Source: a bacterium
Lineage (GTDB): Bacteria; Auribacterota; Auribacteria; Auribacterales; Auribacteraceae
Direction: 5' to 3'
NCBI GenBank assembly: GCA_024233545.1
Contig: JACKPL010000003.1
Location: 64,584-128,583 of the forward strand
Length of the DNA stretch: 64,000 nt
Positions 5,950 through 33,439 of the stretch are shown one piece after another. How positions within the stretch are numbered: the first letter of the stretch is position 1; every line of letters starts with the position of its first letter. A model generated the notes under the pieces. It was not told the DNA's origin, did no database searches, and saw only the letters and a list, made by a program, of their open reading frames with translations. A program made the translations under genes and the position numbers.

Positions 5950-6267
5950 ATGGGCATGGGGAAAATCCTTAAACAAGCTCAGAAAATGCAGCGTGAAATG
6001 GAACGTGTTCAGGAAGAACTTGCCGCTAAAGAGTTAGAAGTAACTGCCGGCGGAGGGATGGTAACAATAAAAATAACCGGCGAACAAAAAATAACCGGCA
6101 TAAAGATAAAACCCGAAGTTGTCAAATCCGGCGATATCGAGGACATTGAGGATTTAATTGTTGCCGCCGTCAATCAGGCGATCGACGAATCAAAAAAAAT
6201 GATGTCCGATGAAATGGGAAAAATAACCGGAGGATTGAACATACCGGGATTTGGGCTGGGCATATAA
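5950..6267 (+). CDS. ybaB: YbaB/EbfC family nucleoid-associated protein
   Basis: 105 aa, reading ..ILKQAQKMQREMERVQEELAAKELEVTAGGGMVTIKITGEQKI..I.I.PEVV. The start abuts the dnaX stop, in the conserved dnaX-ybaB-recR order. Confidence 0.9.
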   Translation: MGMGKILKQAQKMQREMERVQEELAAKELEVTAGGGMVTIKITGEQKITGIKIKPEVVKSGDIEDIEDLIVAAVNQAIDESKKMMSDEMGKITGGLNIPGFGLGI

Positions 6268-6285
6268 AATGCAGTACGGTAGGGT

Positions 6286-6885
6286 ATGAGCTGTTATCCT
6301 GATGCAATTGAAACACTAATCAGCTGGTTTTCACGATTACCCGGCGTAGGGTATAAAAGTGCAGAACGAATGGTGATGCATCTCCTTGAAATGCGGGAAG
6401 AAGATATTCAGGATTTTGCCGCTTCAATGACTGAAATGAAACGAACTATACGGAGATGTGCGGTAACAAATGCGCTGACAGACCGCGAAGTGAGCGAGTT
6501 TTATACTGATCCTTCGCGTGACTCTTCTCTCTTATGCGTTGTTGAAACGTCTCGTGATATGTTTGCCGTAGAACGGTCGGGAGTATTCAAAGGACGGTAT
6601 CTCGTATTAGGCGGCAAACTCTCTCCATTGAATGGCATAGGTCCTGATGAACTGGCATTTGATAAATTGCTTCGTATGCTTGATAATGGTTCGTATGGAG
6701 AAATTATCGTTGCCACCGGATCGGATGTGGAAGGCGAAGCGACAGCGGTTTATATTCAGAAACTGCTCCACCATAAAAAAATCCGCATAACACGAATTGC
6801 CTATGGAGTTCCGGTAGGAAGCAGTCTCGATTATACTGATGAAATGACCATAATGCGCGCTCTGCAAGGGCGCCGTGAATATTAA
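6286..6885 (+). CDS. recR: recombination protein RecR (zinc-finger cysteines degenerate)
   Basis: HhH motif LISWFSRLPGVGYKSAERMVMHLL, Toprim region LCVVETSRDMFAVERSGVFKGRYLVLGG..SPL.GIGP and the C-terminal GVPVGSSLDYTDE motif. Confidence 0.9.
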   Translation: MSCYPDAIETLISWFSRLPGVGYKSAERMVMHLLEMREEDIQDFAASMTEMKRTIRRCAVTNALTDREVSEFYTDPSRDSSLLCVVETSRDMFAVERSGVFKGRYLVLGGKLSPLNGIGPDELAFDKLLRMLDNGSYGEIIVATGSDVEGEATAVYIQKLLHHKKIRITRIAYGVPVGSSLDYTDEMTIMRALQGRREY

Positions 6886-6914
6886 GGTTTCCAGTTACTG
6901 AATATGCCGACAAA

Positions 6915-8099: not shown

Positions 8100-8175
8100 T
8101 TTTCATTCCTTAATTATGTACGTGAAAAGTTAAATAAATATATAGCATATAATATGTTGGCAATCAAGATATTTC

Positions 8176-8195
8176 AAAAAAAAAAAAAAAAAAAA
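8176..8195. repeat. homopolymeric A20/T20 tract in a divergent intergenic region
   Basis: 20 consecutive A on the + strand. It lies 77 nt upstream of the minus-strand PEP-CTERM gene start (8099) and 4 nt upstream of a TTGAAC hexamer (8200-8205). Confidence 0.95.
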
Positions 8196-8339
8196 CTGCT
8201 TGAACAGTAAAGAAATAGTATACAAATAGTATGAAGTATGGTACACTGCCCCCCATTTTTACTATAAGTGCTGTATCAGCGAAATACAGCCACTGTGCAA
8301 GCTGAGAATAACATAACAATTTTTATAAGGGACGTTGGT

Positions 8340-18332: not shown

Positions 18333-19442
18333 CTAAGGCACTGTGGGGAAAACAACTGCTTCGCTGATACAAAGATTCACTGCTACGCGAGTATTGAGTT
18401 CCCAATTGCACTCAGGCGGCATGTCTGATAAAACCGTTTGTTTGGAAGGCAGGCTGATAGTATAACGAAACGTTGAACCTAAGAATTGTTTTTTTATAAG
18501 CACGCCGATTCCTGCTGTATGTTGCTGTACGGATAGATCGCATGGTTTTAGCATAACTTCCAGTACGGGAATCTGTCTGTATTGCATAGGGCACGGAAGG
18601 GTGCCGATTTCAGTAACAATATGGTTGCCGGAAACGTGTCCTTGTAGAAACGATGCATTTCCTATGAAGGCGGCAATGAACTTGGTTTTCGGATGCCGGT
18701 ATAAGTCCCATGGCGTATCGAATTGTTCAATGATCCCGTTGTTCATCACCAGTACGCGGTCGGCAGTATCAAGCGCTTCGTTTAGGTCGTGAGTTACCCA
18801 GACCGCTGTTGTTTTTGTTTGCTGAATAATGCTTTTCAGTTCTTGAGCAAGGTTGTTGCGCAATTCAGCATCGATATTGCTCAACGGCTCATCCAGCAAA
18901 AGAATTTTCGGATTTGGCGCTAAACTGCGCGCCAGTGCAACTCTCTGCTGTTGCCCGCCGGATAATTCATAGGGGTATCTATTCAGGAAATTTTGAATTC
19001 CAAGCATGTCTGTCAATTCGTGAAGCCTATTGGTTTGGAATTTTTTATCCATTTTTTTTATACCGAACAGAATATTTTTTTTGACGGTTAAATGCGGGAA
19101 CAAAGCATGGTCTTGAAATACCATACCGATTTTTCTCTTTTCAGGAGGGATAAAACTGTTTTTATCGAATAAAACCGAACCATTCACTCTGCACATTCCG
19201 AAGGATGTCCGTTCGAGACCTGATATCAACCGCAAAAGCGTGGTTTTGCCCGAGCCGCTCTGTCCGATAACAACGATGATTTCGCCCTTTTTTATCGCTA
19301 GAGTAACCGGCCCGAATGTGAAAGGCGGTTTATCGCATGCCGGTATCCGGTATGTATGAGCGACATCGTGCAGTTGAACATATGGTTCTGTTGTGCGGTT
19401 AACCATGGTTTCGGATAGTGTGTCTATTGCATTAAGGTTCAT
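18333..19442 (-). CDS. ABC transporter ATP-binding protein, Fe3+/polyamine (FbpC/PotA) type
   Basis: Walker A GQSGSGKTTLLRLISGLE, signature LSGGQQQRVALARSL, Walker B ILLLDEPLSNID and a C-terminal TOBE-like regulatory domain. Confidence 0.9.
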   Translation of the reverse strand: MNLNAIDTLSETMVNRTTEPYVQLHDVAHTYRIPACDKPPFTFGPVTLAIKKGEIIVVIGQSGSGKTTLLRLISGLERTSFGMCRVNGSVLFDKNSFIPPEKRKIGMVFQDHALFPHLTVKKNILFGIKKMDKKFQTNRLHELTDMLGIQNFLNRYPYELSGGQQQRVALARSLAPNPKILLLDEPLSNIDAELRNNLAQELKSIIQQTKTTAVWVTHDLNEALDTADRVLVMNNGIIEQFDTPWDLYRHPKTKFIAAFIGNASFLQGHVSGNHIVTEIGTLPCPMQYRQIPVLEVMLKPCDLSVQQHTAGIGVLIKKQFLGSTFRYTISLPSKQTVLSDMPPECNWELNTRVAVNLCISEAVVFPTVP

Positions 19443-21031
19443 GTCGCCCCTTTGTGTTGGTGGTGCATGATAGAGTATGCTAACGGCAGAGATGCCGCAA
19501 TTAGCAGTAATGCCGGTGCGGCGGCTTGTTCATAAAACCCTTCGCTTGCGGCAAGCCAAACCTTGACGGTCAGAGAATCGAATCCGGCAGGACGAAGCAA
19601 TAGTGATGCAGGGAGTTCACGCATCGAACTTAAAAACACAATGAGCCACGCACTGAAAAGAGCAGGCCTTATCAAGCGCAGGATGATGTATCCAAAGGTT
19701 TTTAATGATGAAAATCCGAGCAGACGAGCTCCTTCCTCCAATCGGCGTGAAACCTGATTTATGCCTGCACTGATCATTTGAAAACCCTGTGAAAAAAAAT
19801 GTGTCATCAATGCAATGACAATGGCGGCAATGCTGAAATTGAGCGTCGGAACAATAAAACGGAAAACCAAAGATACACCGAGTGCAACCAGTATGCCGGG
19901 CAATGCGAAGCCGAACTGTGCAACCCATGCCGAAATCCTTATCATCCGATTGTTTTTTTCACGGACGCTCAAGTAGGCAACCGGCAATGATAGAGCAACA
20001 CATGCAGTTGCGGTAACCGTTGCAATCAATACACTGTTCAGGCCTGATTGAATGAGACTATCCCAAGAGAATGCCCAGATGCTCAGTGTGCTGGCGGCAT
20101 GCGAAGCCGAGTAACTCCAATACATCAATGTTCCTATCGGCAGAACAAGTCCGGCAATGATAATGGCAATTACAAAACAGGCGGCGGGAATTCTGGCATA
20201 TTTGAGATTGATTATCGATTTGGGACGAAGATGGTTCTTTGCCGATACAAATAACCTCCTTCCGGTAAGCGTATCCTGAATATAAAGCAAGAGAAAGGTA
20301 AACAGCATCAAGAAACAACTCAGCGCATTTGCAATGGAATAATTATAACTTCCGTTTATTTCATGGTATATTGCGCTGACGAATGTCGGGTATCGCAATA
20401 AACTTACCACACCAAAGTCTGAAAGCGCGTACAATCCGGTCAATACACTTCCTGCGGTAATCGCAGGTAGCAGAAGCGGCAACGAAACGGATACCATCCG
20501 TTGCCGACGCCCCATGCCCAAACATTGTGCGGCTTCAGTGAATGTCAGGTCTATGTTATGTATTGATGCGCGGATAATAGTGTATACATAGGGATAAGAA
20601 CCGAGGATAAGTATAAATGCCGCACCGCTAAACCCATATATGGCGGGCAGTGTAACCGGTAAACCGAGAAACGAGAAAAGTTTTTCGCCCACTCCTTTGT
20701 TGCCGAAAAAGTTTACATAACACAGCGCGAGTATATAACACGGTATGATCAACGGCGTTACTAAAGCTGGCGCGAAAAATTTTTTCAACGGCAAATCTGT
20801 GCGTTCGACAAGAAATGCCAGCACGCCTCCTAATACCAATGCACCGCAGGTGACAGTCAAAGCAAGTATGACGGAGTTCACCATAAGATAAGGCACATAC
20901 CGCGTTACGGTACGGTACCAAACGGAAAAATCGACATTGGCGGCGCCGTAAATCACACAGATACACGGCAATGCCATGATACAGGCAACAATCAAACTTA
21001 TGCCGTATTTTACCGGCAGTTTTAGCGCCAT
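19439..21031 (-). CDS. iron(III) ABC transporter permease, duplicated two-domain (FbpB-like)
   Basis: 530 aa with ~12 TM and two BPD-type permease halves. One EAA-like loop reads TEAAQCLGMGRRQRMVSVSLPLL and the second EEGARLLGFSSLKTFGYIILRLIRPA. Overlaps the downstream ATPase gene by 4 nt. Confidence 0.85.
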   Translation of the reverse strand: MALKLPVKYGISLIVACIMALPCICVIYGAANVDFSVWYRTVTRYVPYLMVNSVILALTVTCGALVLGGVLAFLVERTDLPLKKFFAPALVTPLIIPCYILALCYVNFFGNKGVGEKLFSFLGLPVTLPAIYGFSGAAFILILGSYPYVYTIIRASIHNIDLTFTEAAQCLGMGRRQRMVSVSLPLLLPAITAGSVLTGLYALSDFGVVSLLRYPTFVSAIYHEINGSYNYSIANALSCFLMLFTFLLLYIQDTLTGRRLFVSAKNHLRPKSIINLKYARIPAACFVIAIIIAGLVLPIGTLMYWSYSASHAASTLSIWAFSWDSLIQSGLNSVLIATVTATACVALSLPVAYLSVREKNNRMIRISAWVAQFGFALPGILVALGVSLVFRFIVPTLNFSIAAIVIALMTHFFSQGFQMISAGINQVSRRLEEGARLLGFSSLKTFGYIILRLIRPALFSAWLIVFLSSMRELPASLLLRPAGFDSLTVKVWLAASEGFYEQAAAPALLLIAASLPLAYSIMHHQHKGAT

Positions 21032-22065
21032 TGAACTTCTTCCAAAAGGGCACGTGTTTTTTCCAGTTCTGCACCAAGCCGGTCTATTTCGATTTCCATG
21101 ATGCGAACCGCTTCTAATGCGGATGTTCCCGGAGCATTGAGTGATTCCAGCACTTCAGGGTGAGTCTCAACTGCGGGAAGCAAAGGGTATTCGAAATTAA
21201 CTTCCGCAAACAATTTTTGAGCATCAGGAGATACAAGAAAATCAATGAATTGTTCGGCATTACGCCGGTTTGCCGCATTTTTAATAATGCCGGCGCCGCA
21301 GACATTAACAATCTCTCCTCGTCCGCCGGGTTGTTGGTCGAGGTATACAATGCCTACATTCCGTAATGACGGGTCGGTTTCATTCTTTTGGAGATGATAG
21401 TAATAGTGGTTGATAAGTCCCATGGCGTATTCTCCGCGTCCCACAGCCTTGCGCACATCAGTGTGGCTGTCTGACAAAAGGGCTATATCATTATTTTTGA
21501 GTTTCAGGAGAATATCTTTGGTTTTTTCATCGCCCAACTTTATACGCAGTGCACTTACCCATGCTACCAGAGATTCGTTACCGCTGTTTACCGCGGCTAT
21601 TTTTCCGGCATATTTTGTATCGGTTAACGCATCCAGTGTTTTCGGTACAGCGGATTCATCGATCAAATCTTTGTTATAGATAATAGCGCGCGATCTGCCT
21701 GAAATACCAATCCATGATCCGTCTTGAGCTTTGAAATAGGAAGGTATTTTTGCTGTCGCTTCGGATGAATACGACGCAAAAGCTCCGTTCGATTGCAGGT
21801 ATTCCAGCGCGCCAGATTCTTTGGCTATAAATACGTCTGCTGATGGAGCAGTCAACTCGTGCAGAATCTGTTGTGCAAGCGCGCCAGATTTTCCCGCTTT
21901 TAAGACTACTTTGACACCGGTTTGCTGTTCGAAAAGCGAAATTACCGGTTCTATAAGCGGTTGTTTTCGCGCAGAAAACACAACAAGTGTATTATCTTCT
22001 GCCGCGCAATACCGTGCACAAGCAAACTGTAAAAGCACAAGAATAAGCAATAACCATTTTTTCAT
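21022..22065 (-). CDS. periplasmic Fe3+-binding protein of ABC transporter (FbpA/AfuA-like)
   Basis: Signal peptide MKKWLLLILVLLQFACARYCAA. The mature part, ..LVVFSARKQPLIEPVISLFEQQTGVKVVLKAGKSG.., is typical of family-1 solute-binding proteins for iron. Overlaps the permease gene. Confidence 0.8.
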   Translation of the reverse strand: MKKWLLLILVLLQFACARYCAAEDNTLVVFSARKQPLIEPVISLFEQQTGVKVVLKAGKSGALAQQILHELTAPSADVFIAKESGALEYLQSNGAFASYSSEATAKIPSYFKAQDGSWIGISGRSRAIIYNKDLIDESAVPKTLDALTDTKYAGKIAAVNSGNESLVAWVSALRIKLGDEKTKDILLKLKNNDIALLSDSHTDVRKAVGRGEYAMGLINHYYYHLQKNETDPSLRNVGIVYLDQQPGGRGEIVNVCGAGIIKNAANRRNAEQFIDFLVSPDAQKLFAEVNFEYPLLPAVETHPEVLESLNAPGTSALEAVRIMEIEIDRLGAELEKTRALLEEVQWR

Positions 22066-22081
22066 AATGAAACTCTCCTTA

Positions 22082-22933
22082 TTAGTTTAATTTGTAGACT
22101 ATGTCCACAGTCATTGTTAACGTTTTAGAATCAATATCTGAGGGGAATGCAGGGAACGGAGATGCTTTTTTCACCGATTGCTGAGCCGATTCATTGAGTA
22201 TTTTATAGGGGCACGGTTCTTTTACCCTCACAAAGTGCAATGCGCCTGAGGGCAATAAAGCAAACTCCAGTTTTACAACTCCTTGCAGACGCATGCGCCG
22301 TGCGGAAGAAGGGTACTTTTGAGCCGATTGTATATACTGTTTGACAGTATCTTCATAACGCATTACCATTTCGCTATGGATATCGGATACCTGTGCTTTC
22401 TGCGTTGACCGATCATCAGGAGTTTCCTGTTTTTCTTGTTTGATAGACGGTACGGCAGGATTCTCTTGTTCTTTTATAAGCGGTTCGGCCGTTTCCTCTA
22501 CAGGCAGTATCGGTTCTTCTTCAGCCGGTTCCATCGGAGCTTCGTTTGCGTCTTGTTTTGGCAGATCGGCAGTTGTTGTATTTTCGAGAACCGGTTCGGC
22601 AGATTCTTCCTTAGGAATATTGTCGGTGTCTTGAATCGGTATCTCTTCGGATTCCACTGGAATTGCAGACAGTTCTTCTGTGTCTACCGGTGTAGGTTCC
22701 GGCAGTTCGATGGGTTTTTCCAGAGGAACAAACTGTGTCTGTTCGGAGACCTGTTCAAGTTTCGGCAAAAGAGGGGGGGATTCAAATTGAATTTCCAATT
22801 CGATGTCCTCTTTTTTTGTTATGTCTTGTATTTCAAAAAAATTAAAGCTTGATAATCCTACAGCGCCTCCATGAATAAACAAGGATAGCCCAAGGCTGAT
22901 ACCTAAACCATAATTTTCCAGAAATTGTTTCAT
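22082..22933 (-). CDS. tonB: energy transducer TonB
   Basis: N-terminal anchor, a long Glu/Pro-rich spacer (EPTPVDTEELSAIPVESEEIP..) and a C-terminal TonB domain ..YPSSARRMRLQGVVKLEFALLPSGAL..V.V.. Confidence 0.85.
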   Translation of the reverse strand: MKQFLENYGLGISLGLSLFIHGGAVGLSSFNFFEIQDITKKEDIELEIQFESPPLLPKLEQVSEQTQFVPLEKPIELPEPTPVDTEELSAIPVESEEIPIQDTDNIPKEESAEPVLENTTTADLPKQDANEAPMEPAEEEPILPVEETAEPLIKEQENPAVPSIKQEKQETPDDRSTQKAQVSDIHSEMVMRYEDTVKQYIQSAQKYPSSARRMRLQGVVKLEFALLPSGALHFVRVKEPCPYKILNESAQQSVKKASPFPAFPSDIDSKTLTMTVDIVYKLN

Positions 22934-23331
22934 TGCACGGCTCCTTTTTGAGCGGCAATAATAAAATTGTTGGAACCGGCTCGTTTAGCCGTATCAATAA
23001 CCTGAACAGCCAATCCGAAATCGATATGTTCATCGGCGTTCAAAATGACTTTCTTGTGCGGCGAAAGGGAGTTCTTAAGCAATCCGAAGAGTTCGCTGAT
23101 ATCTATTTTCGTATCATTAAAATATAATTCGTTATATTGGTTTATATATATTGTCAGTTCTTGTTGTTCCTGCGGTACGGCGCTCTGTGCTTTGGGCAGT
23201 GAAATAGACAAACCGGGGTTTATTATGAAATTTGCCGTAAGCATAAAGAAAATCAGCAGGAGAAATACGATATCAATTAAAGGAGCGATATTCAATTGGC
23301 AACCGGGACGTTTTGTTCTATCAAAGTCCAT
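22930..23331 (-). CDS. exbD: biopolymer transport protein ExbD/TolR
   Basis: 133 aa, reading ..LNIAPLIDIVFLLLIFFMLTANF.., the conserved TM Asp motif, plus a periplasmic domain. Has a 4-nt overlap with tonB. Confidence 0.9.
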   Translation of the reverse strand: MDFDRTKRPGCQLNIAPLIDIVFLLLIFFMLTANFIINPGLSISLPKAQSAVPQEQQELTIYINQYNELYFNDTKIDISELFGLLKNSLSPHKKVILNADEHIDFGLAVQVIDTAKRAGSNNFIIAAQKGAVQ

Positions 23332-24010
23332 GAGTTTCTACCTTATTTTTTTTGTTTTGGATTGAAACGGCAATCGGATTGCTTATCTGTTCTATGCCGG
23401 TTTTCCGGTATTCTTTACACCATTCTAAAACAGTCGATGCCGCTTCCTTCATGTGTGCGGCGGCGGTATCGATTTTCCCTTCGAAATGATGGTAGAAAAT
23501 CATTGCGGGAATTGCCGCGACAAGACTGGCGGCGGTGGTCATCAGCGCTTCCCAAATACCGCCGGCAAGTACAGATGCGTCAACGTTGCCGCTCAGTTCC
23601 TGAATTTTCATAAATGCCTTTATCATTCCTGTGACGGTGCCGAGCAATCCGAGCAGGGGAGATATATGGGCAATTAAACTGAGTGCACGAAGATGTTTTT
23701 CCATGCGCCGCAATTCCTTGGTTCCTTCAAGATGAATAATTTTCTCCTGTGTTTCTTTTGAACGGTTTTTTGCTTCAATACATTTTTTTACGATATGAGC
23801 AACCGGCCCGGCAGAACGTGCCGCAAGGCCGGATGCCGCATCGAAGTCGCCTGATTGTATAGCGCGTTTTATCGCTTCAAAAAAAGGTTCCTTATTGATA
23901 TGTGCCCGTTTGAGATGAAACATCCGTTCTAAAACAATGGCTCCAACCACAATAGAGCACGCAATGATCGGATACATAAAAAAACCGCCGCGCATTACGA
24001 AATCAAGCAT
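23321..24010 (-). CDS. exbB: MotA/TolQ/ExbB proton channel protein
   Basis: ..ISPLLGLLGTVTGMIKAF..LAGGIWEALMTTAASLVAAIPAMIFYHHF is a classic ExbB signature. ATG at 24010 (MLDFVMRGGFFMYPII..) is preferred over the track start 24109. Confidence 0.9.
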   Translation of the reverse strand: MLDFVMRGGFFMYPIIACSIVVGAIVLERMFHLKRAHINKEPFFEAIKRAIQSGDFDAASGLAARSAGPVAHIVKKCIEAKNRSKETQEKIIHLEGTKELRRMEKHLRALSLIAHISPLLGLLGTVTGMIKAFMKIQELSGNVDASVLAGGIWEALMTTAASLVAAIPAMIFYHHFEGKIDTAAAHMKEAASTVLEWCKEYRKTGIEQISNPIAVSIQNKKNKVETHGL

Positions 24011-24158
24011 ATGTGTGTCCTTGTTACTTAATCCATTAGACTGATCCATTCCATTTTGACAGCATTTCAATAATGAGAATAAGCCAGTATAGTTCCTTAG
24101 TTCTTGCACCCTGAGTGGGGTGTATTTCTTTTTCCTTCATACTAACCGAAACCTTTTA

Positions 24159-26258
24159 TCAGAATTTAAACGTACATGACCCCCCGACTACAAAATTTCT
24201 GGCGATGCCATGAAAATTAGTGAGGGGCTCGCGGTAATTTTTATTGAAAATATTTTCAACCGCCGCATGCACTTTAAATCCTTTGATATACGGTATATCG
24301 CAACCGACGCGAACATCCCATAATCCATATCCGGGAGTATGGAGGCTGCTATCGGCTATACGCTCATTGTCGTGAACGAATTCTCCTTCAACTTCGCAGA
24401 ACAAGTTCCATAGTGTATCTTGAGGTACTTGATAACGCACGCCGGTATGGACTTCTGCCGGTGTGATTGAATTGAGGAATACATCGGTGTCTTTGTCAAA
24501 CCCTTCGGTGATTTCCAGTGTTGCGAAGGTTGAAATACCGTTCCATATATCAATTTCGATAAATCCTTCGAGCCCGTATATCTCCGCATCGGAAACATTG
24601 CGTGCTGTTGTGGTGCCGCCGGGAGGGCCGAATGGCCCAAACGGAAAAGTAACGTCTACATCAAGGTCGATGAAATCTTTGGCGTCTATATAGAAGAAAA
24701 CCAGTTCGGCTTGTATCCTGTCGTGGTCGAGGCGTGCTCCTGCTTCCATACTTTTTGCCTTTTCAGGCCTTAAGTCGGGATTGGGAACAAATGTATTAAA
24801 GGCAAAATGGGTGCCGGTTGTGTATAATTCCAGCAAACTGGGCGATCGGAATCCATGTCCGTAATTTGCAAATAGGCTGAATTCGTCAGTAACTTTAAGT
24901 ACCGTAGCGATTTTCGGATTGAACCGGCCTTCTTCATTTTCGTCTTCGCCGGATGCCTGAGAGCGGTATTTATCCCAGCGAACGCCGGGGATAATGCTTA
25001 ACCTGCCGTCAAAAAAAGTAATCTCATTTTGGATATATACACCGAGGCTTTCAAAGTCGCCGGCGGGAAAACTGCCCAGCGGCGCACTGCCGGAACCGCT
25101 GGCAGTGCGGTTGCCTTCTGCGCTGTCTTGATAATATTCTATTCCGTATGTCAGGAGGTTCTCTATACCCGCTAATTCGAAAGCGCTGGTATTTTTAAAT
25201 TCGAGGCCGTAGGTATCAATGTCGCGGTCGTCTTTGATACCTTCCGAGGAGCGGTCATGTTGTATTTCAGTTAATTGGTAATAGAAATTCCCTTTGAAAT
25301 CGGCAAATAACCCGTAACCTTCGGCATGGGATAGTTCCAAGTTTAAAAGGTTGCGGCGTGTTGTCCGGTCGGTAAGAGTATTGGAAGTACTCAACGCGGT
25401 TGAGGGGTTGACGGGAACAATCGATTTTTCGTCATACAACGTGTTGCTGATAGTAAATTTGGTTATATCCGACGGGTTGAAAACAATTTTTGAAAATAAA
25501 TTGTTGCCGGATTGTTCCGAATCGCGCAGGCGGTCGCCGTTGCTTAATTTGATGCTGTCGCCGGTATCCCAATAGGTATATGAAATAAGGTATTCCAGAT
25601 AGTCGGTGATAGTGCCGAAGATTCGTTCGGTCTGGCGGAATTCCTGATTGGCTGAATTGAAAAGAGTCCGCGTCCCGATGCCGAAGGTTTCGTTGTCGAT
25701 AAGCATGTCGCTCGGGTCTTTGGTAATAATATTGATTACCCCGCCGATGGCATCGGAGCCATAGAGCGCTGACGCCGAACCGCGCAGAACCTCAATACGC
25801 TCTATGTCGTCGATATTGAGGAATAACCGTCCTTGATGGCCGCTGAAGAAATTCATGCGTGAATCATCCTGCCGGATTTGAACGCGCCTGCCGCCCAAAC
25901 CGCGAATGGTAGGCGATTGTCCAACTTGACGAGGCCCGGAGTTTATTTGCACACCGGGAATATCTTCCAGAATATCGCCGACATCTTTTGCGCCTTTTGA
26001 GAATATTTCCTCAGAGGTTGCCACGCCGACTGATTGCGGCGAATCAAGCAATGCACGGCGGGTTTTTGTGCCGGCGTACACAACTGTTCCAAGATCGTAC
26101 CGTCCGATGTTTGCAGGCAATGGCGGTGCGGGTGTTTGCTCATTTTTCGATTCGGCATTTTCCGCAAAGAGCGGTTGATAAGAAAATGCCGTCAATGCCA
26201 TTGCTATTAGAGCAACCAACTTCTTGTGAGCGGTGCAGTTAGATGTTACTGTATTCAC
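24159..26258 (-). CDS. TonB-dependent outer-membrane receptor (possible haem/tetrapyrrole or iron-complex receptor)
   Basis: GTG start with GGAGGA 9 nt upstream. Contains a signal peptide, a plug region (..GAKDVGDILEDIPGVQI..), a barrel and a terminal ..GGSCTFKF. An FRSP..H..NPDL region is present. Confidence 0.9.
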   Translation of the reverse strand: MNTVTSNCTAHKKLVALIAMALTAFSYQPLFAENAESKNEQTPAPPLPANIGRYDLGTVVYAGTKTRRALLDSPQSVGVATSEEIFSKGAKDVGDILEDIPGVQINSGPRQVGQSPTIRGLGGRRVQIRQDDSRMNFFSGHQGRLFLNIDDIERIEVLRGSASALYGSDAIGGVINIITKDPSDMLIDNETFGIGTRTLFNSANQEFRQTERIFGTITDYLEYLISYTYWDTGDSIKLSNGDRLRDSEQSGNNLFSKIVFNPSDITKFTISNTLYDEKSIVPVNPSTALSTSNTLTDRTTRRNLLNLELSHAEGYGLFADFKGNFYYQLTEIQHDRSSEGIKDDRDIDTYGLEFKNTSAFELAGIENLLTYGIEYYQDSAEGNRTASGSGSAPLGSFPAGDFESLGVYIQNEITFFDGRLSIIPGVRWDKYRSQASGEDENEEGRFNPKIATVLKVTDEFSLFANYGHGFRSPSLLELYTTGTHFAFNTFVPNPDLRPEKAKSMEAGARLDHDRIQAELVFFYIDAKDFIDLDVDVTFPFGPFGPPGGTTTARNVSDAEIYGLEGFIEIDIWNGISTFATLEITEGFDKDTDVFLNSITPAEVHTGVRYQVPQDTLWNLFCEVEGEFVHDNERIADSSLHTPGYGLWDVRVGCDIPYIKGFKVHAAVENIFNKNYREPLTNFHGIARNFVVGGSCTFKF

Positions 26259-26261
26259 TGA

Positions 26262-26501
26262 CTATAATCCTCCATCACGAACAACGCCGGTTGACCGGTA
26301 GAGCGCGTGTTTTCTGCTGTTGATGCAAACTCCACAAATATGGTCGTTTTGGATGTTAAACCGTTTCTTTTCATTCTTTTCCAACTGAACAACCGTTCCG
26401 TTATGAATTTTTATAATCACTTCGCCGAATGAGATTGTTTCTATCGCACTGATAATTTCATCAAGGATGCAAGGCGCTATTTTTTCTTTGTGTATGCTCA
26501 T
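26262..26501 (-). CDS. DUF2292 (YezD-like) small protein with extra Cys-containing tail
   Basis: 79 aa. ..ISAIETISFGEVIIKIHNGTVVQLEKNEKKRF matches my recollection of the YezD/DUF2292 core. The tail is ..NDHICGVCINSRKH.. Its start overlaps the CobN-like stop by 1 nt. Confidence 0.6.
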   Translation of the reverse strand: MSIHKEKIAPCILDEIISAIETISFGEVIIKIHNGTVVQLEKNEKKRFNIQNDHICGVCINSRKHALYRSTGVVRDGGL

Positions 26502-29500
26502 TATGCGGTTAGCCTCCTGCGGCGTATTCCTAAAATAACTGTTATGATGAATACACAGATTATACCTAACACTATCAATGCGGCGGATAAACTGTCCTTA
26601 ATCATTTCTTTTACTTTTTCAACAGTGACGGTTTCTTCTTTTAATGTCATGCCTTCCTGTTGCTGAGAAGCGGAGGAAAACGTAGTTTCGTTGATTTTCT
26701 CTGTATACTGCTGAGCTAGGGTAGGATCGGCAATGTTTGCGATCATTTGCTGAAGTTTGATATTGTCGCAGACAAACCCACTGCACCCTGCTTGGTATTC
26801 GCTGACAAGAGAAGTATGCAGATTTGCGATAGTTTTAATCATTTCCTCCGATGGTTTCCAGTATCCTTTGCGTACTGTTTCGAGCATAACCGCTGTCATT
26901 TCCTGCAAGGCATAGGGATTAACGTCCTTAAACCGGTCGATAATATTGAGCTCATGAATATCATCGATGTATACGTCATACAGAGTATTCCACAGCGCTT
27001 CATCGACTGCCGATGGTTTCATCACGTTCCATCCGAAAGTATTGCGGAATGTTTCAGCGAATTCTTCTGCGCCCGAGGCGCCTTCTTTGAGCATTTCGTC
27101 GATGAAAACAGGATTGTAAATAGTGGAACGCGCTTCGATCCAAATTGCTTGGGTTACTCCCTGTACCGTTGCGTTATATTTGTTGCGCAGGTCGCTGAAA
27201 TATGATGCAGGGTCATTGCCGGTAACCGAACGTATTGCGGCATTAAGCCCGCCCATAAATTCATAGGTATGGTCGAGCGACAAGGGGCCGGTCATGTTGC
27301 TCGAACGAGGGTGCATGACGGTGTCAGTATGCTGAAGAGCGGCTTCAAACATACCCGGCGCGTAAACGCTCCAGCGGCCTTTAGTGTACATTGCGCCCAT
27401 ATTTTCTATGTATTGTGTAGCGATTTGGCTGTCGTTTTCCCATGCGTCGCCGTCTTCAACCAGCGGCATAATGCCGGTGCCGTATTGCCCGTTGATGCCG
27501 CCGAACACTCGAACGGTAGAAAAGGTGCGGGCTTCTTCGGGAGAAAACCCTTTTTGTTTGAGCACTTTTTCTGCGGCACCGGTTCCTCTGCGCACATAGT
27601 TTGGAAATGATTCCGTTCCCTGTGCTTCTGAGGCAATCCGAATAGCTTTTTCGATCAGGTAAATGCGCGATGCGGCAAGGTCGCGGAATTGCCCTGATGT
27701 TTGGACAAACACGTCGATGCGCGGCCTGCCGAGAGTTTCTGTAGGAATAAGCCTTACATCATATACCCTGCCGCGAGAGTTCCATACCGGTTCAACGCCC
27801 AGCAGATAGAGTATCTGAGCAATATTAACTCCCTCGCCGCGTATAAATTCGCCGCCCCACAGGCTGAATGCCACTTTTTCAGGGTAATTCCCTTTAGAAT
27901 ACAGCGATGATTCAAAAAGTTGCCCGACGAGTTTCTGTGCCGTTTTCCATGCTTCTTTTGTCGGAGTTCGTTCGGCATCGATGGAATAGATATTTTTACC
28001 GGTTGGAATAGCCGACGGGTTGATAATGGCGTCGCCGCCGGATGAAGGAGCAGTATATCCGCCGTTAAGTCCGTTCAACAACGCTTGAAGCTCCATCGCC
28101 GCTGAGCCCTGCAAATCGGCAACATATTGCTTTACCGATCGTAATGCGTCGCGATAGGTGCGGATTGCTTGTGCGCGTTCTGCTTCTTTTCCGCGTATTT
28201 CTGCAATGCGAGCCCGAGCGCCATTGATTGTATTTTTAATAAAACTGGTAGCTTGATCGCTTCTTAAAATTGCGCCGACGGCTTTTGCGTTGCCCGTGCC
28301 GGTTTGCGTTATCGCATCGGCAAGAGCGGTATTCCCGATGTAAGATTCCAAATGTCCGGCAAATGTTTCCAGTGTTTGCGTATCCCATTGGTTCAAAGCA
28401 GTTTTAAGTTTTTCCGGCTGTTGCGTAAGGAAAAGATCGGAAGTGTAGGGTTCTGAAAGTAATTGTGCCGTCAGTTCACGTTCTTTCTGTTGTTTTTCTG
28501 CTTGTATGCGTGCCTCGAAATGTGTGTCTTTAAGAAGTTCAAAAGTATATTCCCGTGCCTGTGTATTCTGCATTGTTTCAAGAAGGCTCATCATATCAGG
28601 CTGGACGAGCAAATCGATCTGCTTTTTCATTGCCGGTATCAATTGAGCAATTTTTTGTGTTTTGTCGCGGGTAACCGGATCGAGTAGCGCGGAACTTTTA
28701 TTGAATTTTGTTTCATTTTGCATTTCAAGTACGGCTTTTTTCTTTTCAGGGTCGGATGCGATGGCGAGAACCAGCGATGCAACGTGTTCTTTCTGAAATG
28801 GTTGTTCTGCTTGTGCTTGCTTCTCGTTGCCTGTCCCGAGCTGAAACATGCTTAACAGCCATTCTTCTTCAGACAATGTTTTGTTTTCTTGTTCCCATTT
28901 TTCAAGGAACGCTGAGTCTGCCGGATCGATCAACGAATCGGGTTGTGCCGTGCCTTGGAGAATTGCATTCAGGTATTCGCGGGCGTGTGTCCCATATAGA
29001 GCGTTAAACTCATGGGCGTTCTCATAGGCCGCATCAGTGGTTTTCCCTGTGAGGATGTCCATGGCGGCCATGCTGTACATAACCGGGTCAAGTGCCATGA
29101 GCAAGGCAGTTTCGTATATATCAGTTTGATCATATGGTGTGCCGAATGTATGGAAGCCTCGTATGACTTTTTCCGCTTCAACGGCATGAATATGATTATG
29201 CAGTTTCATGATCCCTTCTTCAGAAAACCGTAAGTATTGTGATGAGAGAATACCGGACGCTTCGGCAACGGTTTTATTGGCGGAAATGTATTCCAGCAGA
29301 TTTTTTTCAGATTGAAACTGCTGTTCGGCGGCCGGCGCATTAACGACGCTTTGTTGCAATGCTGTTAGCTGAGCATCAGGAATAGTTCGGCTGTATTCTG
29401 TTATTCTCTCAACCCCTTCTTGAGTTAAACGCGTAAAACGGCGGTCAATGAGTGACAAGTCGATATGAACGTCAGTTTTAATTGCCAGATCGAACAGAGA

Positions 29501-31405
29501 TTTTTCATGTTCTTCTTTGAGCATTTTGTCTTCAACATTCAAAAGCGCATGAAGCTTGTCGTGCAGAAGAGAAAAATCACCGTATAGTTCTGTTTTCATA
29601 AACGGCGGCGTGAGATGCGAAATCATGGTTGCATATATTCTTCGTTTTGCCATCATTGCTTCGCCGACATTATTTATCACATAGACATAGTGGTGCGGTA
29701 TGTCGCCGATGAGGTTATCAGCCCAATCATAATGAGAGAGCGCAACTTGTTTGCCGGGAGTAAACTCAAGGCTTCCATGTGTGCCGAAATGGATGATGGC
29801 ATCGGCATTAAAACGGTGCCTGCTCCAGAGATATGACGCTATATAGGTGTGAGTTGCGGCTTTATTTGCTCCATGGAGAAGATTGTATTCGTTTTCGCCA
29901 TATGCCGGCGGCAGAATGGGCAACAGGACAACATTGCCGAATTGAACACGAGGGATAGCAAGGTATTGTGCACCGTTGCGCGTCACATTCAGGTATTTCC
30001 CGGGAGGCGGCCCGTAGGTGTCGATTACCTCATTGAGGCGTTCTGCAGGGATATCGCTGTAAAACCATTGTTTGTATTCATCAACGGTAATGAGTTCAGG
30101 ATTCCCTTCGTTGATAAATTTTTCGATAGTGCCTTGTGCATAAATGCCCAATACCGGCCCTTCTTTGTTTATCCGTGCGGAAAATTCTTCGGCGGTTTGC
30201 GGCAGTTCGCCGGTAGTATAACCGGCATCTTTGAGCGATCGAAGCACGTTGAGCAGTGAATCGGCAACGTTCATGCCTCCGGCAACAAGCGAATTGAGCC
30301 CCGGCGCTTTGATATAATAAATTGCCACTTTTTTTTCTGCGTTGGGTTTGGTTTGCAGTGTCAACCAGTTATGAACCAATGAAACACATTTTTCCAGCCG
30401 GTCGGTAATGGCTTTAAATACATATAATCCGTTTTCATTTTTAAACTGAGCGGTGAGTACCCGCGGGTTCGTGGATCCGTCGAGTTCGGGAACCACGATG
30501 TTTTGCCCCATTTCGCCTCCTATCATTCCGCGCTGGTCAGCCATCCAATCTTCGTAGGGAACGAGAATATTCAGCGGTGCTATCAAAGGAATGTTTTGCT
30601 CTTTGAGCCATGCTACCGCTTCATCTCCTCTGCCGATTGCTAAACGGCCGTGTGGAAAATAGATAACAAGATTTGGATTTATCTCCTTAAGAAAATCAAG
30701 CCGTTTCAAAAAACCGTCTATGGGATATACGTTGATCTCCTTGTTTTCTAGCGCGGAAATCAATGCGTCAATATGTTCGCGGTTTGAGTTGCGCGGACCG
30801 GCGGTGGATGTGATAACCGCGACGCGCGGGGCATTTTCTTTATATAATCCGCTCTGCACATAAAATTGCTGGTATTGTTCATATGATTCAAAATAGTTCT
30901 CGTCACTGATGTGAAAAAAGGTGTCGTCGGGGATTGTGTGCGGTTCGCTAACGGTACTGGTAAACAGTTTTTTCCCATCGAGTGTGCGGCGTGTATAATT
31001 GAGAAGGTTTTTATAATTCTTTAATCCGCCGTACGACAAATAGTTTTTTACCGATTTCAGCTGATTGCCGGTTAAACTGGTTATGTCATTCTCATCGCTT
31101 GTTGCGGCGTGAGAGTAAACCGGCACCCCATTTTTTATGGCATTTTTTATATGTCCGCGCTGTTCTTCCGATAACGTTTTCCCATGAGCAAAAATGTACA
31201 CTGCATCGAACCGTTTCACCGAGTGCAGTTTATCTAAAGGAATACTTGATAACCGTATAAAAGGGTTTGTGTTGGCTTGTAAAAATTTTGCGTATTGGTA
31301 ATCGGCAAAATTCACCAATGCAATCCGTGTTGGGGCGAGGTATTTCTCATAGCCAATCCAACAGGCGAATATAAGAAGGCTAATAAGCAAGATTTTCTTT
31401 TTCAA
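26501..31405 (-). CDS. CobN/Mg-chelatase family protein, HmuS-like, 1,634 aa, membrane-anchored at both ends
   Basis: Hallmark CobN motifs IIHFGTHGSLEFTPGKQ (nt ~29765-29794) and IPTGKNIYSIDAERTPT (nt ~27983-28009). N-terminal TM KKKILLISLLIFACWIGY and C-terminal TM LSAALIVLGIICVFIITVILGIRRRR. Confidence 0.9.
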   Translation of the reverse strand: MKKKILLISLLIFACWIGYEKYLAPTRIALVNFADYQYAKFLQANTNPFIRLSSIPLDKLHSVKRFDAVYIFAHGKTLSEEQRGHIKNAIKNGVPVYSHAATSDENDITSLTGNQLKSVKNYLSYGGLKNYKNLLNYTRRTLDGKKLFTSTVSEPHTIPDDTFFHISDENYFESYEQYQQFYVQSGLYKENAPRVAVITSTAGPRNSNREHIDALISALENKEINVYPIDGFLKRLDFLKEINPNLVIYFPHGRLAIGRGDEAVAWLKEQNIPLIAPLNILVPYEDWMADQRGMIGGEMGQNIVVPELDGSTNPRVLTAQFKNENGLYVFKAITDRLEKCVSLVHNWLTLQTKPNAEKKVAIYYIKAPGLNSLVAGGMNVADSLLNVLRSLKDAGYTTGELPQTAEEFSARINKEGPVLGIYAQGTIEKFINEGNPELITVDEYKQWFYSDIPAERLNEVIDTYGPPPGKYLNVTRNGAQYLAIPRVQFGNVVLLPILPPAYGENEYNLLHGANKAATHTYIASYLWSRHRFNADAIIHFGTHGSLEFTPGKQVALSHYDWADNLIGDIPHHYVYVINNVGEAMMAKRRIYATMISHLTPPFMKTELYGDFSLLHDKLHALLNVEDKMLKEEHEKSLFDLAIKTDVHIDLSLIDRRFTRLTQEGVERITEYSRTIPDAQLTALQQSVVNAPAAEQQFQSEKNLLEYISANKTVAEASGILSSQYLRFSEEGIMKLHNHIHAVEAEKVIRGFHTFGTPYDQTDIYETALLMALDPVMYSMAAMDILTGKTTDAAYENAHEFNALYGTHAREYLNAILQGTAQPDSLIDPADSAFLEKWEQENKTLSEEEWLLSMFQLGTGNEKQAQAEQPFQKEHVASLVLAIASDPEKKKAVLEMQNETKFNKSSALLDPVTRDKTQKIAQLIPAMKKQIDLLVQPDMMSLLETMQNTQAREYTFELLKDTHFEARIQAEKQQKERELTAQLLSEPYTSDLFLTQQPEKLKTALNQWDTQTLETFAGHLESYIGNTALADAITQTGTGNAKAVGAILRSDQATSFIKNTINGARARIAEIRGKEAERAQAIRTYRDALRSVKQYVADLQGSAAMELQALLNGLNGGYTAPSSGGDAIINPSAIPTGKNIYSIDAERTPTKEAWKTAQKLVGQLFESSLYSKGNYPEKVAFSLWGGEFIRGEGVNIAQILYLLGVEPVWNSRGRVYDVRLIPTETLGRPRIDVFVQTSGQFRDLAASRIYLIEKAIRIASEAQGTESFPNYVRRGTGAAEKVLKQKGFSPEEARTFSTVRVFGGINGQYGTGIMPLVEDGDAWENDSQIATQYIENMGAMYTKGRWSVYAPGMFEAALQHTDTVMHPRSSNMTGPLSLDHTYEFMGGLNAAIRSVTGNDPASYFSDLRNKYNATVQGVTQAIWIEARSTIYNPVFIDEMLKEGASGAEEFAETFRNTFGWNVMKPSAVDEALWNTLYDVYIDDIHELNIIDRFKDVNPYALQEMTAVMLETVRKGYWKPSEEMIKTIANLHTSLVSEYQAGCSGFVCDNIKLQQMIANIADPTLAQQYTEKINETTFSSASQQQEGMTLKEETVTVEKVKEMIKDSLSAALIVLGIICVFIITVILGIRRRRLTA

Positions 31406-31427
31406 TGGATTATACTCCTTAGTTGTG

Positions 31428-31760
31428 TTATTCGGGGATATAAATTATTTCACCATTTTCCAGCTGATACGCAGTGCCGACTTTTTTTCCCCTGCCGCGC
31501 CCCGTTCCTTCGGCGGCTTTATATTTCGTGATCTTTTCCCCTCGTTTCATAATAATTTCCATATCATCTTTACCGGGATTTTTTACCATCGTCATTTCAT
31601 CGTGAGTGAAAAGTTCTGTTAAGTTCAAATGTGTAACGAGAGCGACCATCAAAGCGACGGCGAAAACCATGCCTAGATCGAATAGGTTAGCCATACCTGC
31701 TAAGGGATCATTGTCGAATTCGTCTGTCAGTATTAAATGATGTTTGCTGTAGTTTCGCAT
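31428..31760 (-). CDS. DUF2149-like single-pass protein (ExbD/TolR-like topology)
   Basis: 110 aa. ..DNDPLAGMANLFDLGMVFAVALMVALV.. is a single TM with an Asp at its cytoplasmic edge, followed by a small soluble domain. It is encoded directly after a MotA/ExbB-like gene with a 28-nt overlap. Confidence 0.6.
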   Translation of the reverse strand: MRNYSKHHLILTDEFDNDPLAGMANLFDLGMVFAVALMVALVTHLNLTELFTHDEMTMVKNPGKDDMEIIMKRGEKITKYKAAEGTGRGRGKKVGTAYQLENGEIIYIPE

Positions 31761-32359
31761 GTCTTTCCTATTTCGTGTTGAGCAAGTTGCAGGATATAGC
31801 GCAAATGTGAAATATCTTCAACAAACCATCGCTTTTTTATCAAATGGGTAATGAATCCGACTGCGCCGACAAAAATCCCTACGACTGTGGTAGAGAAGGC
31901 TACCTGCATATTAACCGCCATCGATGCGATGTTGCCCACCGCCAATCCGACAAGAGCTGGCCCCATGGGTATCAGTGTTCCCATCAATCCGAGCATAGGG
32001 CCGAGCCGGACAAGCGTTTGGGACGATTCAAGCGATTTTGCGCCGGCTATCTCATAATCATCGATGATTTTATCTGCGTGCGGTGATTGCCAGCGGACAC
32101 GTTTCATGTTTGCCAGCGGCAGAGATAAGTGGTTTTCTGCTGAGAGCTCAGATTCGAAAACAATTGATTGTACCGGTGTATGCCGGAGTGTTTCCAGCAG
32201 GTCGGAAAATTTTTTCCCGTTCGAAAGGCGATGCATATAAATTCCGTAAAATGAACCTGCCATAAATAATGCCCAAATGAAACACCACAATAGCGCAATG
32301 ATGACTGGAATAAGGAGTCCGGAAGAAATCCAAAACAAACTGTTTGTTAATATGCTCAT
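31733..32359 (-). CDS. MotA/TolQ/ExbB-family proton-channel-like protein (second copy, divergent)
   Basis: 208 aa. ..LVRLGPMLGLMGTLIPMGPALVGL..MQVAFSTTVVGIFVGAVGFI resembles the ExbB/TolQ channel helices. Overlaps both neighbours. Confidence 0.7.
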   Translation of the reverse strand: MSILTNSLFWISSGLLIPVIIALLWCFIWALFMAGSFYGIYMHRLSNGKKFSDLLETLRHTPVQSIVFESELSAENHLSLPLANMKRVRWQSPHADKIIDDYEIAGAKSLESSQTLVRLGPMLGLMGTLIPMGPALVGLAVGNIASMAVNMQVAFSTTVVGIFVGAVGFITHLIKKRWFVEDISHLRYILQLAQHEIGKTCETTANII

Positions 32360-33042
32360 TCTGTCCCCTTCGATTGTTTATAGGCTGTTATAAGATATCC
32401 TGTGCCGGCGATTACTCCCATGCCGAACAGTAGTAATACAGTATTGAAAAGGCTTGTCTGCGTGGAAATGTTCACCATAGGCAATCCACTTATTACCATA
32501 GGGGAAAACATTGCAATGAGCATCTGAGCGAAAACGATAAGCGCTTTCAATTCCACTCGCCATTCCCAGCGGGGCAGAAGGTGTTTGAACAACCATGCTC
32601 CACCGAAAAGAAGGATAAACAGCCCGAAAGAGATAAAAAAAGAAATAAACGAATACGAGTATCCTTGGATTAGGTTGAACATCATGGTTTGAGCGCATAA
32701 AATTCCCAAAAGAAAAATTCCGGAAGGAAATAAGCTTAAATACTCTATTCGCCGTGATTTGGCCTGCAGGCATCGGGTGTGTATCAAAGCGAATGCCGTT
32801 GCCATTACGACAATTGCCTCACCTATTTGATAAGCACAGAATCCCGTTATCATTTCGTAATTCATAAACCATTGGTGTAACAGCCTCAGGCGTATCCTTG
32901 CTGAAAGAAACGCAAATGAAAAGTTAAAAATAGAAATCCCTAAACACATCAGAAAATGCCCTCTTGTTGTTTTTGTCAGGGAAATATTTATGAGGGTATG
33001 AATAAGCCCTACAATAATGAGTGCCGTAAATAATAACCACAT
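32356..33042 (-). CDS. polytopic membrane protein, first gene of the operon (DUF2162-like position; unassigned)
   Basis: 228 aa with 6-7 hydrophobic segments. ATG at 33040-33042 and a 4-nt overlap with the next gene. I recognise no motif with confidence. Confidence 0.6.
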   Translation of the reverse strand: MWLLFTALIIVGLIHTLINISLTKTTRGHFLMCLGISIFNFSFAFLSARIRLRLLHQWFMNYEMITGFCAYQIGEAIVVMATAFALIHTRCLQAKSRRIEYLSLFPSGIFLLGILCAQTMMFNLIQGYSYSFISFFISFGLFILLFGGAWLFKHLLPRWEWRVELKALIVFAQMLIAMFSPMVISGLPMVNISTQTSLFNTVLLLFGMGVIAGTGYLITAYKQSKGTE

Positions 33043-33080
33043 GTCCTTGCCTAAAAAGGAAATTTATAAAAAACAAATTA

Positions 33081-33109
33081 GATATATCAAACATTATTGG
33101 TCTAGTCAA
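33081..33109 (-). promoter_or_regulatory. candidate sigma70-type promoter of the 12-gene operon
   Basis: On the minus strand, TTGACT (complement of 33104-33109), a 17-nt spacer, then TATATC (complement of 33081-33086), about 40 nt upstream of ATG 33042. An AT-rich GATAAATATTATTTGAC segment overlapping the -35 resembles a Fur box only weakly (about 10/19). Confidence 0.35.
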
Positions 33110-33178
33110 ATAATATTTATCTATACATAGTTTTTTTGAGAGGATGAATAGCTTTTAAAAAAACCTTTATTCAACTAT

Positions 33179-33213
33179 GCGCGGAATGGCGTGGAAAAGC
33201 GCGGAATACCGTG
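33179..33213. promoter_or_regulatory. GC-rich 15-nt direct repeat (x2, 20-bp phasing) in the divergent control region
   Basis: GCGCGGAATGGCGTG (33179-33193) and GCGCGGAATACCGTG (33199-33213), a 13/15 match. They are followed by inverted repeat GCTTTA-N8-TAAAGC (33213-33232). The repeat stands out in an otherwise AT-rich spacer. Confidence 0.4.
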
Positions 33214-33439
33214 CTTTAGAGATGCGTAAAGCATTGCAAAAAAACAATTTGAAAGTCATATCTATCTTCTGAAAAGCAGGATAGATTATTTGCTTTTAGG
33301 TGGGAACAAGAATTGCGTATCCCTTGATGAATAATCATGAAATAAAAATACATTGTATTGGTCACAGAAACTTTTAAAATTTGATTTTTTTTTCAAAAGA
33401 GAAGAATTTTTATATAAATCCATATTTAAAAGGAGAAAT

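Follow-up and report, generated by a model that had tools for sequence, protein, structure and literature searches.

The canonical hmu operon encodes HmuY, the TonB-dependent receptor HmuR, HmuS, the hypothetical membrane protein HmuT, the MotA/TolQ/ExbB-family protein HmuU and the DUF2149 protein HmuV (PMC11681262, PMC10434189), and the intact hmuYRSTUV operon has been reported to be confined to Bacteroidetes (PMC10100974). Genetics, biochemistry and cryo-electron microscopy have shown that HmuS turns haem into protoporphyrin IX and Fe(II) (Nath et al., 2025; PMC12583661). Here, we describe a cluster of 12 genes on a 64,000-nucleotide stretch of bacterial DNA (contig JACKPL010000003.1 of assembly GCA_024233545.1; the whole stretch is referred to as the window), in which five of the six families of the operon known from Porphyromonas gingivalis and Bacteroides thetaiotaomicron are found (HmuR, HmuS, HmuT, HmuU and HmuV). 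We propose, with a probability of about 0.68, that these genes make up an operon for acquiring iron from haem, with a sister-clade version of the Bacteroidota hmu system at its centre. Neither the components nor the core system is new; the novelty lies in how they are combined, in the apparent host lineage, in a permuted layout that includes a DUF2292 gene and in the divergent HmuS clade, which lacks two published hallmarks of the family.

The likeness to hmuYRSTUV extends to the T-U-V block, which keeps its canonical internal order in the first three open reading frames (ORFs) of the cluster, and to the N- and C-terminal transmembrane (TM) anchors of HmuS. In contrast, the window has no HmuY, its order is TUV-S-(DUF2292)-R instead of Y-R-S-T-U-V, and it adds the DUF2292 gene and, downstream, exbB-exbD-tonB and fbpABC. 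Twelve consecutive ORFs run on the minus strand from 33042 to 18333 in the order hmuT-hmuU-hmuV-hmuS-DUF2292-hmuR-exbB-exbD-tonB-fbpA-fbpB-fbpC (Table 1). Seven junctions overlap, by 4, 28, 1, 11, 4, 10 and 4 nucleotides (nt); the others are gaps of 22, 3 and 16 nt and one larger gap upstream of exbB.

An earlier reading of the window from its letters alone (the original prediction) had listed these ORFs and overlaps, and the ORF table bears it out. The gap of about 150 nt that it placed before exbB holds if the gene starts at an ATG near 24010, which leaves about 148 nt; it does not hold for the longest exbB ORF, which starts at a GTG at 24109 and leaves 49 nt. An AAGGA ribosome-binding site precedes the ATG, and an independent gene call agrees with it (229 amino acids [aa]). 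A search against Pfam recovered the domains expected for ORF2 to ORF12; the DUF2162 domain suggested for the polytopic ORF1 was not recovered, as this protein has no Pfam match even at an E value of ≤10. The remark that the arrangement was not known as a described operon agrees with our survey of hmuS loci (three Pfam-annotated contigs and 79 metagenome loci, charted by tblastn), in which the full 12-gene layout occurs only in the window's own organism; half of the layout, however, is a permuted form of the known hmu operon. The order from hmuT through exbB and exbD recurs in two other assemblies (a Logan contig and GCA_020440625.1), and all five of the operon or window proteins that were looked up are also on a 257,727-bp contig of a second metagenome-assembled genome (MAG). 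Because the order recurs in independent assemblies, the arrangement is no assembly artefact.

Table 1. Features of the cluster, listed in the direction of transcription
Feature	Coordinates	Strand	Basis
Upstream intergenic region, between hmuT and a divergent 5071-aa gene	33043..33352	-	promoter candidate, palindrome
hmuT-like polytopic inner-membrane protein, 228 aa, about 6-7 TM segments	32356..33042	-	hydropathy, phmmer
hmuU-like MotA/ExbB-family channel protein, 208 aa	31733..32359	-	Pfam MotA_ExbB 37.2 bits
hmuV-like DUF2149 protein, 110 aa	31428..31760	-	Pfam DUF2149 113 bits
HmuS-like class-I chelatase homologue, putative haem dechelatase, 1,634 aa	26501..31405	-	Pfam CobN-Mg_chel 954 bits, PDB 9d26
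DUF2292 small protein, 79 aa	26262..26501	-	Pfam DUF2292 52.5 bits
hmuR-like TonB-dependent haem receptor, 699 aa	24159..26258	-	Pfam Plug and TonB_dep_Rec, NCBIfam TonB-hemin
Largest intergenic gap (if exbB starts at the ATG)	24011..24158	-	GC-rich hairpin 24105-24124
exbB, 262 aa in the longest ORF, more likely 229 aa	23321..24109	-	Pfam MotA_ExbB 108 bits
exbD, 133 aa	22930..23331	-	Pfam ExbD 101 bits
tonB, 283 aa	22082..22933	-	Pfam TonB_C 57.5 bits
fbpA-like periplasmic ferric-iron binding protein, 347 aa, signal peptide	21022..22065	-	SBP_bac_8/6/1/11, PDB matches
fbpB-like fused double permease, 530 aa	19439..21031	-	2 x BPD_transp_1, ~12 hydrophobic segments
fbpC-like ABC ATPase, 369 aa	18333..19442	-	ABC_tran 119 bits

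The HmuS-like protein and the haem receptor

In a phmmer search of all PDB sequences, the largest protein of the cluster scores 1135 bits against HmuS (9d26), compared with 378 for ChlH and 318 for CobN, and it is 51% identical to B. thetaiotaomicron HmuS in the catalytic half. It has the fold of the superfamily (Pfam CobN-Mg_chel) in common with CobN and ChlH/BchH, along with the HFG(T/A)HG motif that runs through the whole superfamily. Unlike them, it is membrane anchored and predicted to be periplasmic, its scores to them are about threefold lower than its score to HmuS, and neither a CobS/CobT or ChlI/ChlD partner, nor cob or bch genes, nor a riboswitch is found in the window. The protein falls far short of the NCBIfam equivalog cutoffs (best CobN model, 685 versus 1248; BchH, 577 versus 829). 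On sequence grounds, the large protein is HmuS-like, as the original prediction held, and no cobalt or magnesium chelatase.

The family-defining features of HmuS have been listed (PMC12583661), and they were the basis of a residue-by-residue test. The HFGTHG motif is kept and bears H543, the counterpart of the catalytic His-538. The segment LSLDHTYEFMGG at residues 1375-1386 is the LSLDHxxEFMGG motif, with the counterparts of Asp-1208, His-1209 and Glu-1212; those of His-254 and of the catalytic Glu-577 are H252 and E582. Across an alignment of 18 homologues, H252, H543, E582, D1378, H1379 and E1382 are invariant. The counterparts of Ser-1067, which is >90% conserved and not invariant in the same alignment, and of Ser-1199 are likewise kept. 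The likeness to B. thetaiotaomicron HmuS (PDB 9d26/9p4s; PMC12583661) takes in full-length homology, both motifs, the two TM anchors and a domain-IV insertion. The two proteins differ in that the insertion of the window protein is twice as long and not Met-rich, and in clade. In a neighbour-joining tree of the catalytic half, the homologues form two clades that coincide with gene layout, with B. thetaiotaomicron HmuS in the S-then-T-U-V clade and the window protein in the T-U-V-then-S clade. Named homologues come from Omnitrophota, Planctomycetota, Victivallales, Cytophagia and Bacteroidales. As side observations, the window protein has an extra segment of ~55 aa between domains (residues ~672-725) that is not in B. 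thetaiotaomicron HmuS, and most close homologues are ~60 aa shorter overall.

The terminal hydrophobic segments of the HmuS-like protein (residues 5-23 and 1600-1630) are flanked by KKK and RRRR. Because of this charge pattern, KKK-TM at one end and TM-RRRR at the other, the body of the protein is predicted to lie in the periplasm, and published models of a membrane-anchored, periplasmic HmuS agree with this topology (PMC10100974, PMC12094164). A periplasmic HmuS body would, therefore, make a binding-protein-dependent iron importer its logical partner.

The receptor is of the haem type, as had been supposed. It passes the NCBIfam TonB-hemin cutoff (403 bits versus 316.85) and falls far short of TonB-B12 (106 versus 599.7). 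Its best PDB relatives are ShuA (183 bits), a haem/haemoglobin receptor (179 bits), PhuR and HasR; BtuB matches it in the plug domain only. The receptor also carries FRSP470...H484...NPDL493, the classical signature of haem receptors (HemR, ShuA and HmuR).

Between hmuS and the receptor gene sits the DUF2292 gene, which overlaps the hmuS stop codon by 1 nt. Elsewhere, DUF2292 directly follows hmuS only in the closest relatives among the surveyed loci (L004/L005 and L006), where the protein has 48-50 aa compared with 79 aa in the window. The extra C-terminal tail (NDHICGVCINSRKHALY...) has an H-x-C-x-x-C...H pattern, which could bind metal.

HmuT-HmuU-HmuV and the energising and import modules

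The original prediction took the first proton-motive-force module and the polytopic protein before it as additions to a haem core; they are instead HmuT-HmuU-HmuV of the canonical operon (PMC11681262, PMC10434189). Among the 57 ORFs that directly precede hmuU, in loci of both layouts, more than 30 are homologous to the HmuT-like ORF1 by phmmer (E < 1e-3); a word-indexed homologue search with ORF1 returned only the query's own cluster. We considered HmuT as a haem-b electron conduit and rejected the idea, as no His is conserved among 48 homologues. The HmuU-like protein exceeds the MotA_ExbB cutoff of 22.9 bits, is 42-51% identical to the U gene product adjoining hmuS in surveyed loci and has marginal similarity only to the operon's own ExbB. 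The HmuV-like protein has one TM helix with an invariant Asp (NLFD..VF; 52 homologues) and a small all-beta domain.

DUF2149 had also been called ExbD-like. No such homology was detected: BLASTP gave no alignment with ExbD, and hhalign gave a probability of 0.3% with a weak three-sequence ExbD profile. Foldseek, run with a weak AlphaFold2 single-sequence model (predicted local distance difference test score, 70), gave no PDB match at an E value of ≤0.001 and no ExbD, TolR or MotB; given weak profiles and a weak model, this is no disproof.

Further downstream, the products of exbB, exbD and tonB each exceed the cutoff of their Pfam family (Table 1). The TM segment of ExbD carries an Asp (PLIDIVF), and TonB has an N-terminal SxxxH motif (SLFIH) and an acidic, Pro-rich linker. 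The last three genes have the order of FbpABC, HitABC and SfuABC (binding protein, fused double permease, ATPase), with the difference that the window genes do not stand alone but are embedded in a proposed haem operon. The ferric-iron assignment of the binding protein was upheld: each of its top 28 PDB matches is a protein that binds ferric iron (FbpA, HitA, SfuA, YfuA and FutA; best, 7w3w, 139 bits). Its HYYY aligns with the NNYY/HYY ligand region, and the SGRSR anion-site motif is conserved. Judged by eye, the His-9 ligand of Haemophilus influenzae FbpA appears to have no counterpart. None of the three Fbp proteins reaches an NCBIfam equivalog cutoff, and the matches of FbpC are at the family level only; the ferric ATPase model NF008513 scores 222 versus 496, and the best substrate-binding protein matches are 2-aminoethylphosphonate models far below their cutoffs.

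What, then, does HmuTUV do in an operon of this kind? Current models draw it as the stator that energises the haem receptor (PMC10100974, PMC12583661). Since one operon here holds both a genuine ExbB-ExbD-TonB set and HmuTUV, a role of HmuU and HmuV as the receptor's ExbB and ExbD is argued against. We speculate, as a doubtful proposal, that HmuTUV is something other than this stator, namely, a proton-motive-force module for a periplasmic HmuS-type dechelatase or for protoporphyrin or haem translocation. If so, it would replace the AAA+ ATPase partners needed by cytoplasmic class-I chelatases. Consistent with this proposal, U and V accompany HmuS more often than the receptor does (33 versus 26 of the 35 well-covered loci, those in which hmuS is flanked left and right by 3.5 kb or more), and several HmuS loci show no receptor match in the survey, which reached roughly 9-10 kb to either side. 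The undetected ExbD homology of HmuV and the marginal HmuU-ExbB similarity count the same way. Two published observations count against it: Meslé et al. report 981 species that have R-T-U-V clusters without detectable HmuS (PMC10100974), and HmuTUV is not needed for the turnover of haem by soluble HmuS in vitro (PMC12583661).

A proposed route for haem iron and its rivals

Together, these assignments are consistent with the following route. The HmuR-like receptor would bring haem through the outer membrane with energy supplied by the ExbB-ExbD-TonB complex of the same cluster. The inner-membrane-anchored HmuS-like protein would then strip the iron from haem in the periplasm, leaving protoporphyrin IX, by means of the His/His-carboxylate active site that it has in common with B. 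thetaiotaomicron HmuS; it probably acts with the always-linked HmuT-HmuU-HmuV, and coupling to the proton motive force may be involved. The released iron would be bound by the FbpA-like periplasmic protein and imported via FbpB and FbpC. The route is built on homology, motifs, topology signals, synteny and co-orientation; from these, we infer the haem substrate, the dechelatase activity, a single transcript, iron regulation and a direct hand-off of iron to FbpA. The original prediction had proposed the same sequence of haem import, dechelation and iron import, and the sequence fits the gene assignments and a predicted periplasmic HmuS. Its dedicated Fbp hand-off would have to be read into an adjacency that is found at 1 of 35 loci.

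The survey shows how the neighbours of hmuS vary. In the 35 well-covered loci, HmuU and HmuV flank hmuS at 33 and the receptor is present at 26, followed by HmuY-like proteins (5), flavodoxin (3), FeoB (2), ExbD (2), TonB (1) and FbpA/B (1). Looking at all surveyed loci, Fbp-type transporters adjoin hmuS in L001, a Flavobacteriaceae MAG in which they are co-directional, and in L079/L080, in which they are convergent. These Fbp sets are ~28% identical to that of the window, and because the identity is so low, we regard the associations as independent. FeoAB adjoins hmuS in L004, L047 and L077; ExbBD, with or without TonB, in L006 and L077; and DtxR-like repressors are found in L006 and L047. 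Flavodoxin and FeoB are the reductant and the Fe(II) importer that were hypothesised, yet unlinked, in the study of B. thetaiotaomicron HmuS (PMC12583661). That nonorthologous inner-membrane iron importers recur beside hmuS in unrelated loci suggests, at the level of gene neighbourhoods, a functional link and not chance. In these relatives of the window locus, the flanks with flavodoxin (together with DUF3793), FeoA/FeoB or DtxR-type genes lie in L004 at 3460-7615, L006 at 1201-8272, L063 at 14972-15307, L047 at 6-539 and L077 at 1916-4183.

Several findings weigh against our proposal. HmuS is reported to release Fe(II), for which FeoB is the proposed importer (PMC12583661), whereas FbpA-type proteins bind Fe(III), and Fbp adjoins hmuS at only the one well-covered locus. 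Two of the features by which the HmuS family has been defined, Met-79 (with His-254, a ligand of the site-1 haem) and the Met-rich insertion, are missing. The Met-79 position is occupied by His74 in the window protein (M, R, H or I across the clade), and three cleft residues called strictly conserved are altered (S1014G, Q1198S and W1202T). The domain-IV insertion of 244 aa has 6 Met (2.5%; no more than 6 Met per 100 aa), compared with 21 Met in the 120-aa insertion of B. thetaiotaomicron HmuS. No canonical Fur or DtxR box was found in the hmuT leader, the best matches across the window lying elsewhere, and the gap of ~148 nt with its hairpin before exbB could separate two transcription units.

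A Met-rich insertion at the B. thetaiotaomicron level is found in 0 of 21 full-length environmental homologues (maximum, 11 Met per 100 aa), and on these counts it seems specific to close relatives of B. thetaiotaomicron HmuS. In the HmuS-like protein P0092 of a Planctomycetota MAG, the insertion has 24 His and 1 Met. In the sequences compared, the composition of the insertion is different by lineage (Met-rich, His-rich or neither), and perhaps its ligand chemistry is too. With His74 in place of Met-79, the site-1 haem may have two His ligands (bis-His ligation).

The first rival concerns transcription. Do the 12 genes form two or more units, hmuTUVS-DUF2292-hmuR and exbB-exbD-tonB-fbpABC, with the latter driven from the ~148-nt gap? 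We consider this unlikely, although it has points in its favour. The largest gap sits exactly at the boundary and contains the GC-rich hairpin at 24105-24124, the closest relatives L004 and L006 end their hmu block at the receptor, and P. gingivalis hmu transcripts are heterogeneous (PMC11681262). In contrast, a scan for σ70-type consensus sites only, which is weak, found no minus-strand promoter-like site in the gap, and the hairpin, of 8 bp, has no U-tract on the minus strand, its T-tract being on the plus strand only. The gap has no Rfam match, and terminator-like sites across the region number 18, compared with 18.6 expected in shuffled sequence. The gap could be an attenuation or processing point, a transcript boundary or an internal promoter region. 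Upstream of hmuT, the sole promoter-like site is a σ70-like candidate at 33090-33061. A 30-bp AT-rich imperfect palindrome at 33089-33118 overlaps its -35 element and could be an operator. At an E value of ≤1, this intergenic region yielded no riboswitch of any kind. Farther upstream, an A/U hairpin at 33130-33164 resembles the Rfam Histone3 stem-loop below threshold (26.6 versus 34 bits), presumably by chance.

A second rival, somewhat less likely still, grants an iron-acquisition cluster and denies the dedicated coupling: ExbBD-TonB and FbpABC would be general-purpose systems, adjacent via shared iron-responsive regulation or chance, and FbpA would have no special claim on the iron that HmuS releases. 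The rarity of Fbp, ExbD and TonB as neighbours (1-2 of 35 HmuS loci), the low identity and different orientations of the other loci's Fbp sets, and the mismatch between Fe(III)-binding FbpA and Fe(II)-yielding HmuS (PMC12583661) all fit this explanation. It is opposed by the co-direction of all 12 genes with overlapping junctions, by the repeated finding, next to hmuS, of different inner-membrane iron importers (Fbp in some unrelated lineages, FeoAB in others) and by the lack in the window of any second TonB-dependent receptor that the TonB set might serve.

Finally, salvage or chelation of corrinoids or other nonhaem metallotetrapyrroles, with the large protein as a CobN-like enzyme or a dechelatase for other metalloporphyrins, is effectively excluded: databases annotate the protein as "cobaltochelatase subunit CobN," some hmu-like operons with divergent HmuY/HmuR bear cobalamin riboswitches (PMC10100974), and the Met-79 and cleft substitutions could mean a different ligand, but the CobN and BchH equivalog cutoffs are all missed widely, the receptor passes the haem subfamily cutoff and resembles BtuB in the plug alone, and the grouping with cobalt chelatases in a B12 context that the original prediction had named as contrary evidence is not what we see, there being no cob gene or AAA+ chelatase partner in the 64 kb and no cobalamin riboswitch in Rfam searches at the gathering threshold across the window or at an E value of ≤1 in the leader.

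Genomic surroundings and significance

The rest of the window is unrelated and holds a signal recognition particle (SRP) RNA, dnaX, recR, a major facilitator superfamily transporter, glycosyltransferases and two giant surface-type proteins. The SRP RNA is of the large bacterial type (3887-4156, plus strand; Rfam RF01854, 156 bits) and lies directly upstream of dnaX (4180-5949) and recR (6286-6885). The best named relative of the window's DnaX, a single marker, is that of "Candidatus Auribacter fodinae" of the Planctomycetes-Verrucomicrobia-Chlamydiae (PVC) group, at 50% identity, compared with ~38% for Bacteroidota. Because of the large SRP form and these affinities, a candidate-phylum host outside the Bacteroidota is suggested, and by these markers, the host appears to belong to a PVC-group candidate phylum.

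One giant ORF, of 5071 aa (33353-48568, plus strand), is divergent from hmuT and has one CARDB domain as its sole Pfam match; the other, of 2290 aa (11436-18308, plus strand), converges on fbpC across a 24-nt gap and has only a weak ABC_tran P-loop match at residues 1612-1754. No haem-related Pfam domain was found in either. The original prediction was also right that an HmuY-type haemophore and CobS/CobT/ChlI/ChlD partners are absent: no HmuY domain turned up in Pfam scans that covered the 12 ORFs of the operon and another 18 large ORFs of the window, both giant flanking genes among them, and tblastn gave no match to an HmuY-like protein in the window. FeoAB, flavodoxin and DtxR are likewise missing from the 64 kb.

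Anaerobic haem dechelation of the HmuS type was not demonstrated until 2025 and has so far been regarded as a trait of Bacteroidota or of the gut. The locus described here and its relatives show that the enzyme has a sister clade in environmental lineages outside the Bacteroidota. A clade that lacks Met-79 and the Met-rich insertion narrows the list of features likely to be essential for activity. The published model had placed the TonB system, the iron importer and flavodoxin elsewhere in the genome; that hmu genes have, in one relative or another, a TonB system, an inner-membrane iron importer (FeoAB, or Fbp in the window) and flavodoxin for neighbours supports the model of periplasmic dechelation. 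In addition, the presence of ExbBD-TonB alongside HmuTUV in a single operon poses a concrete question about the role of HmuTUV.

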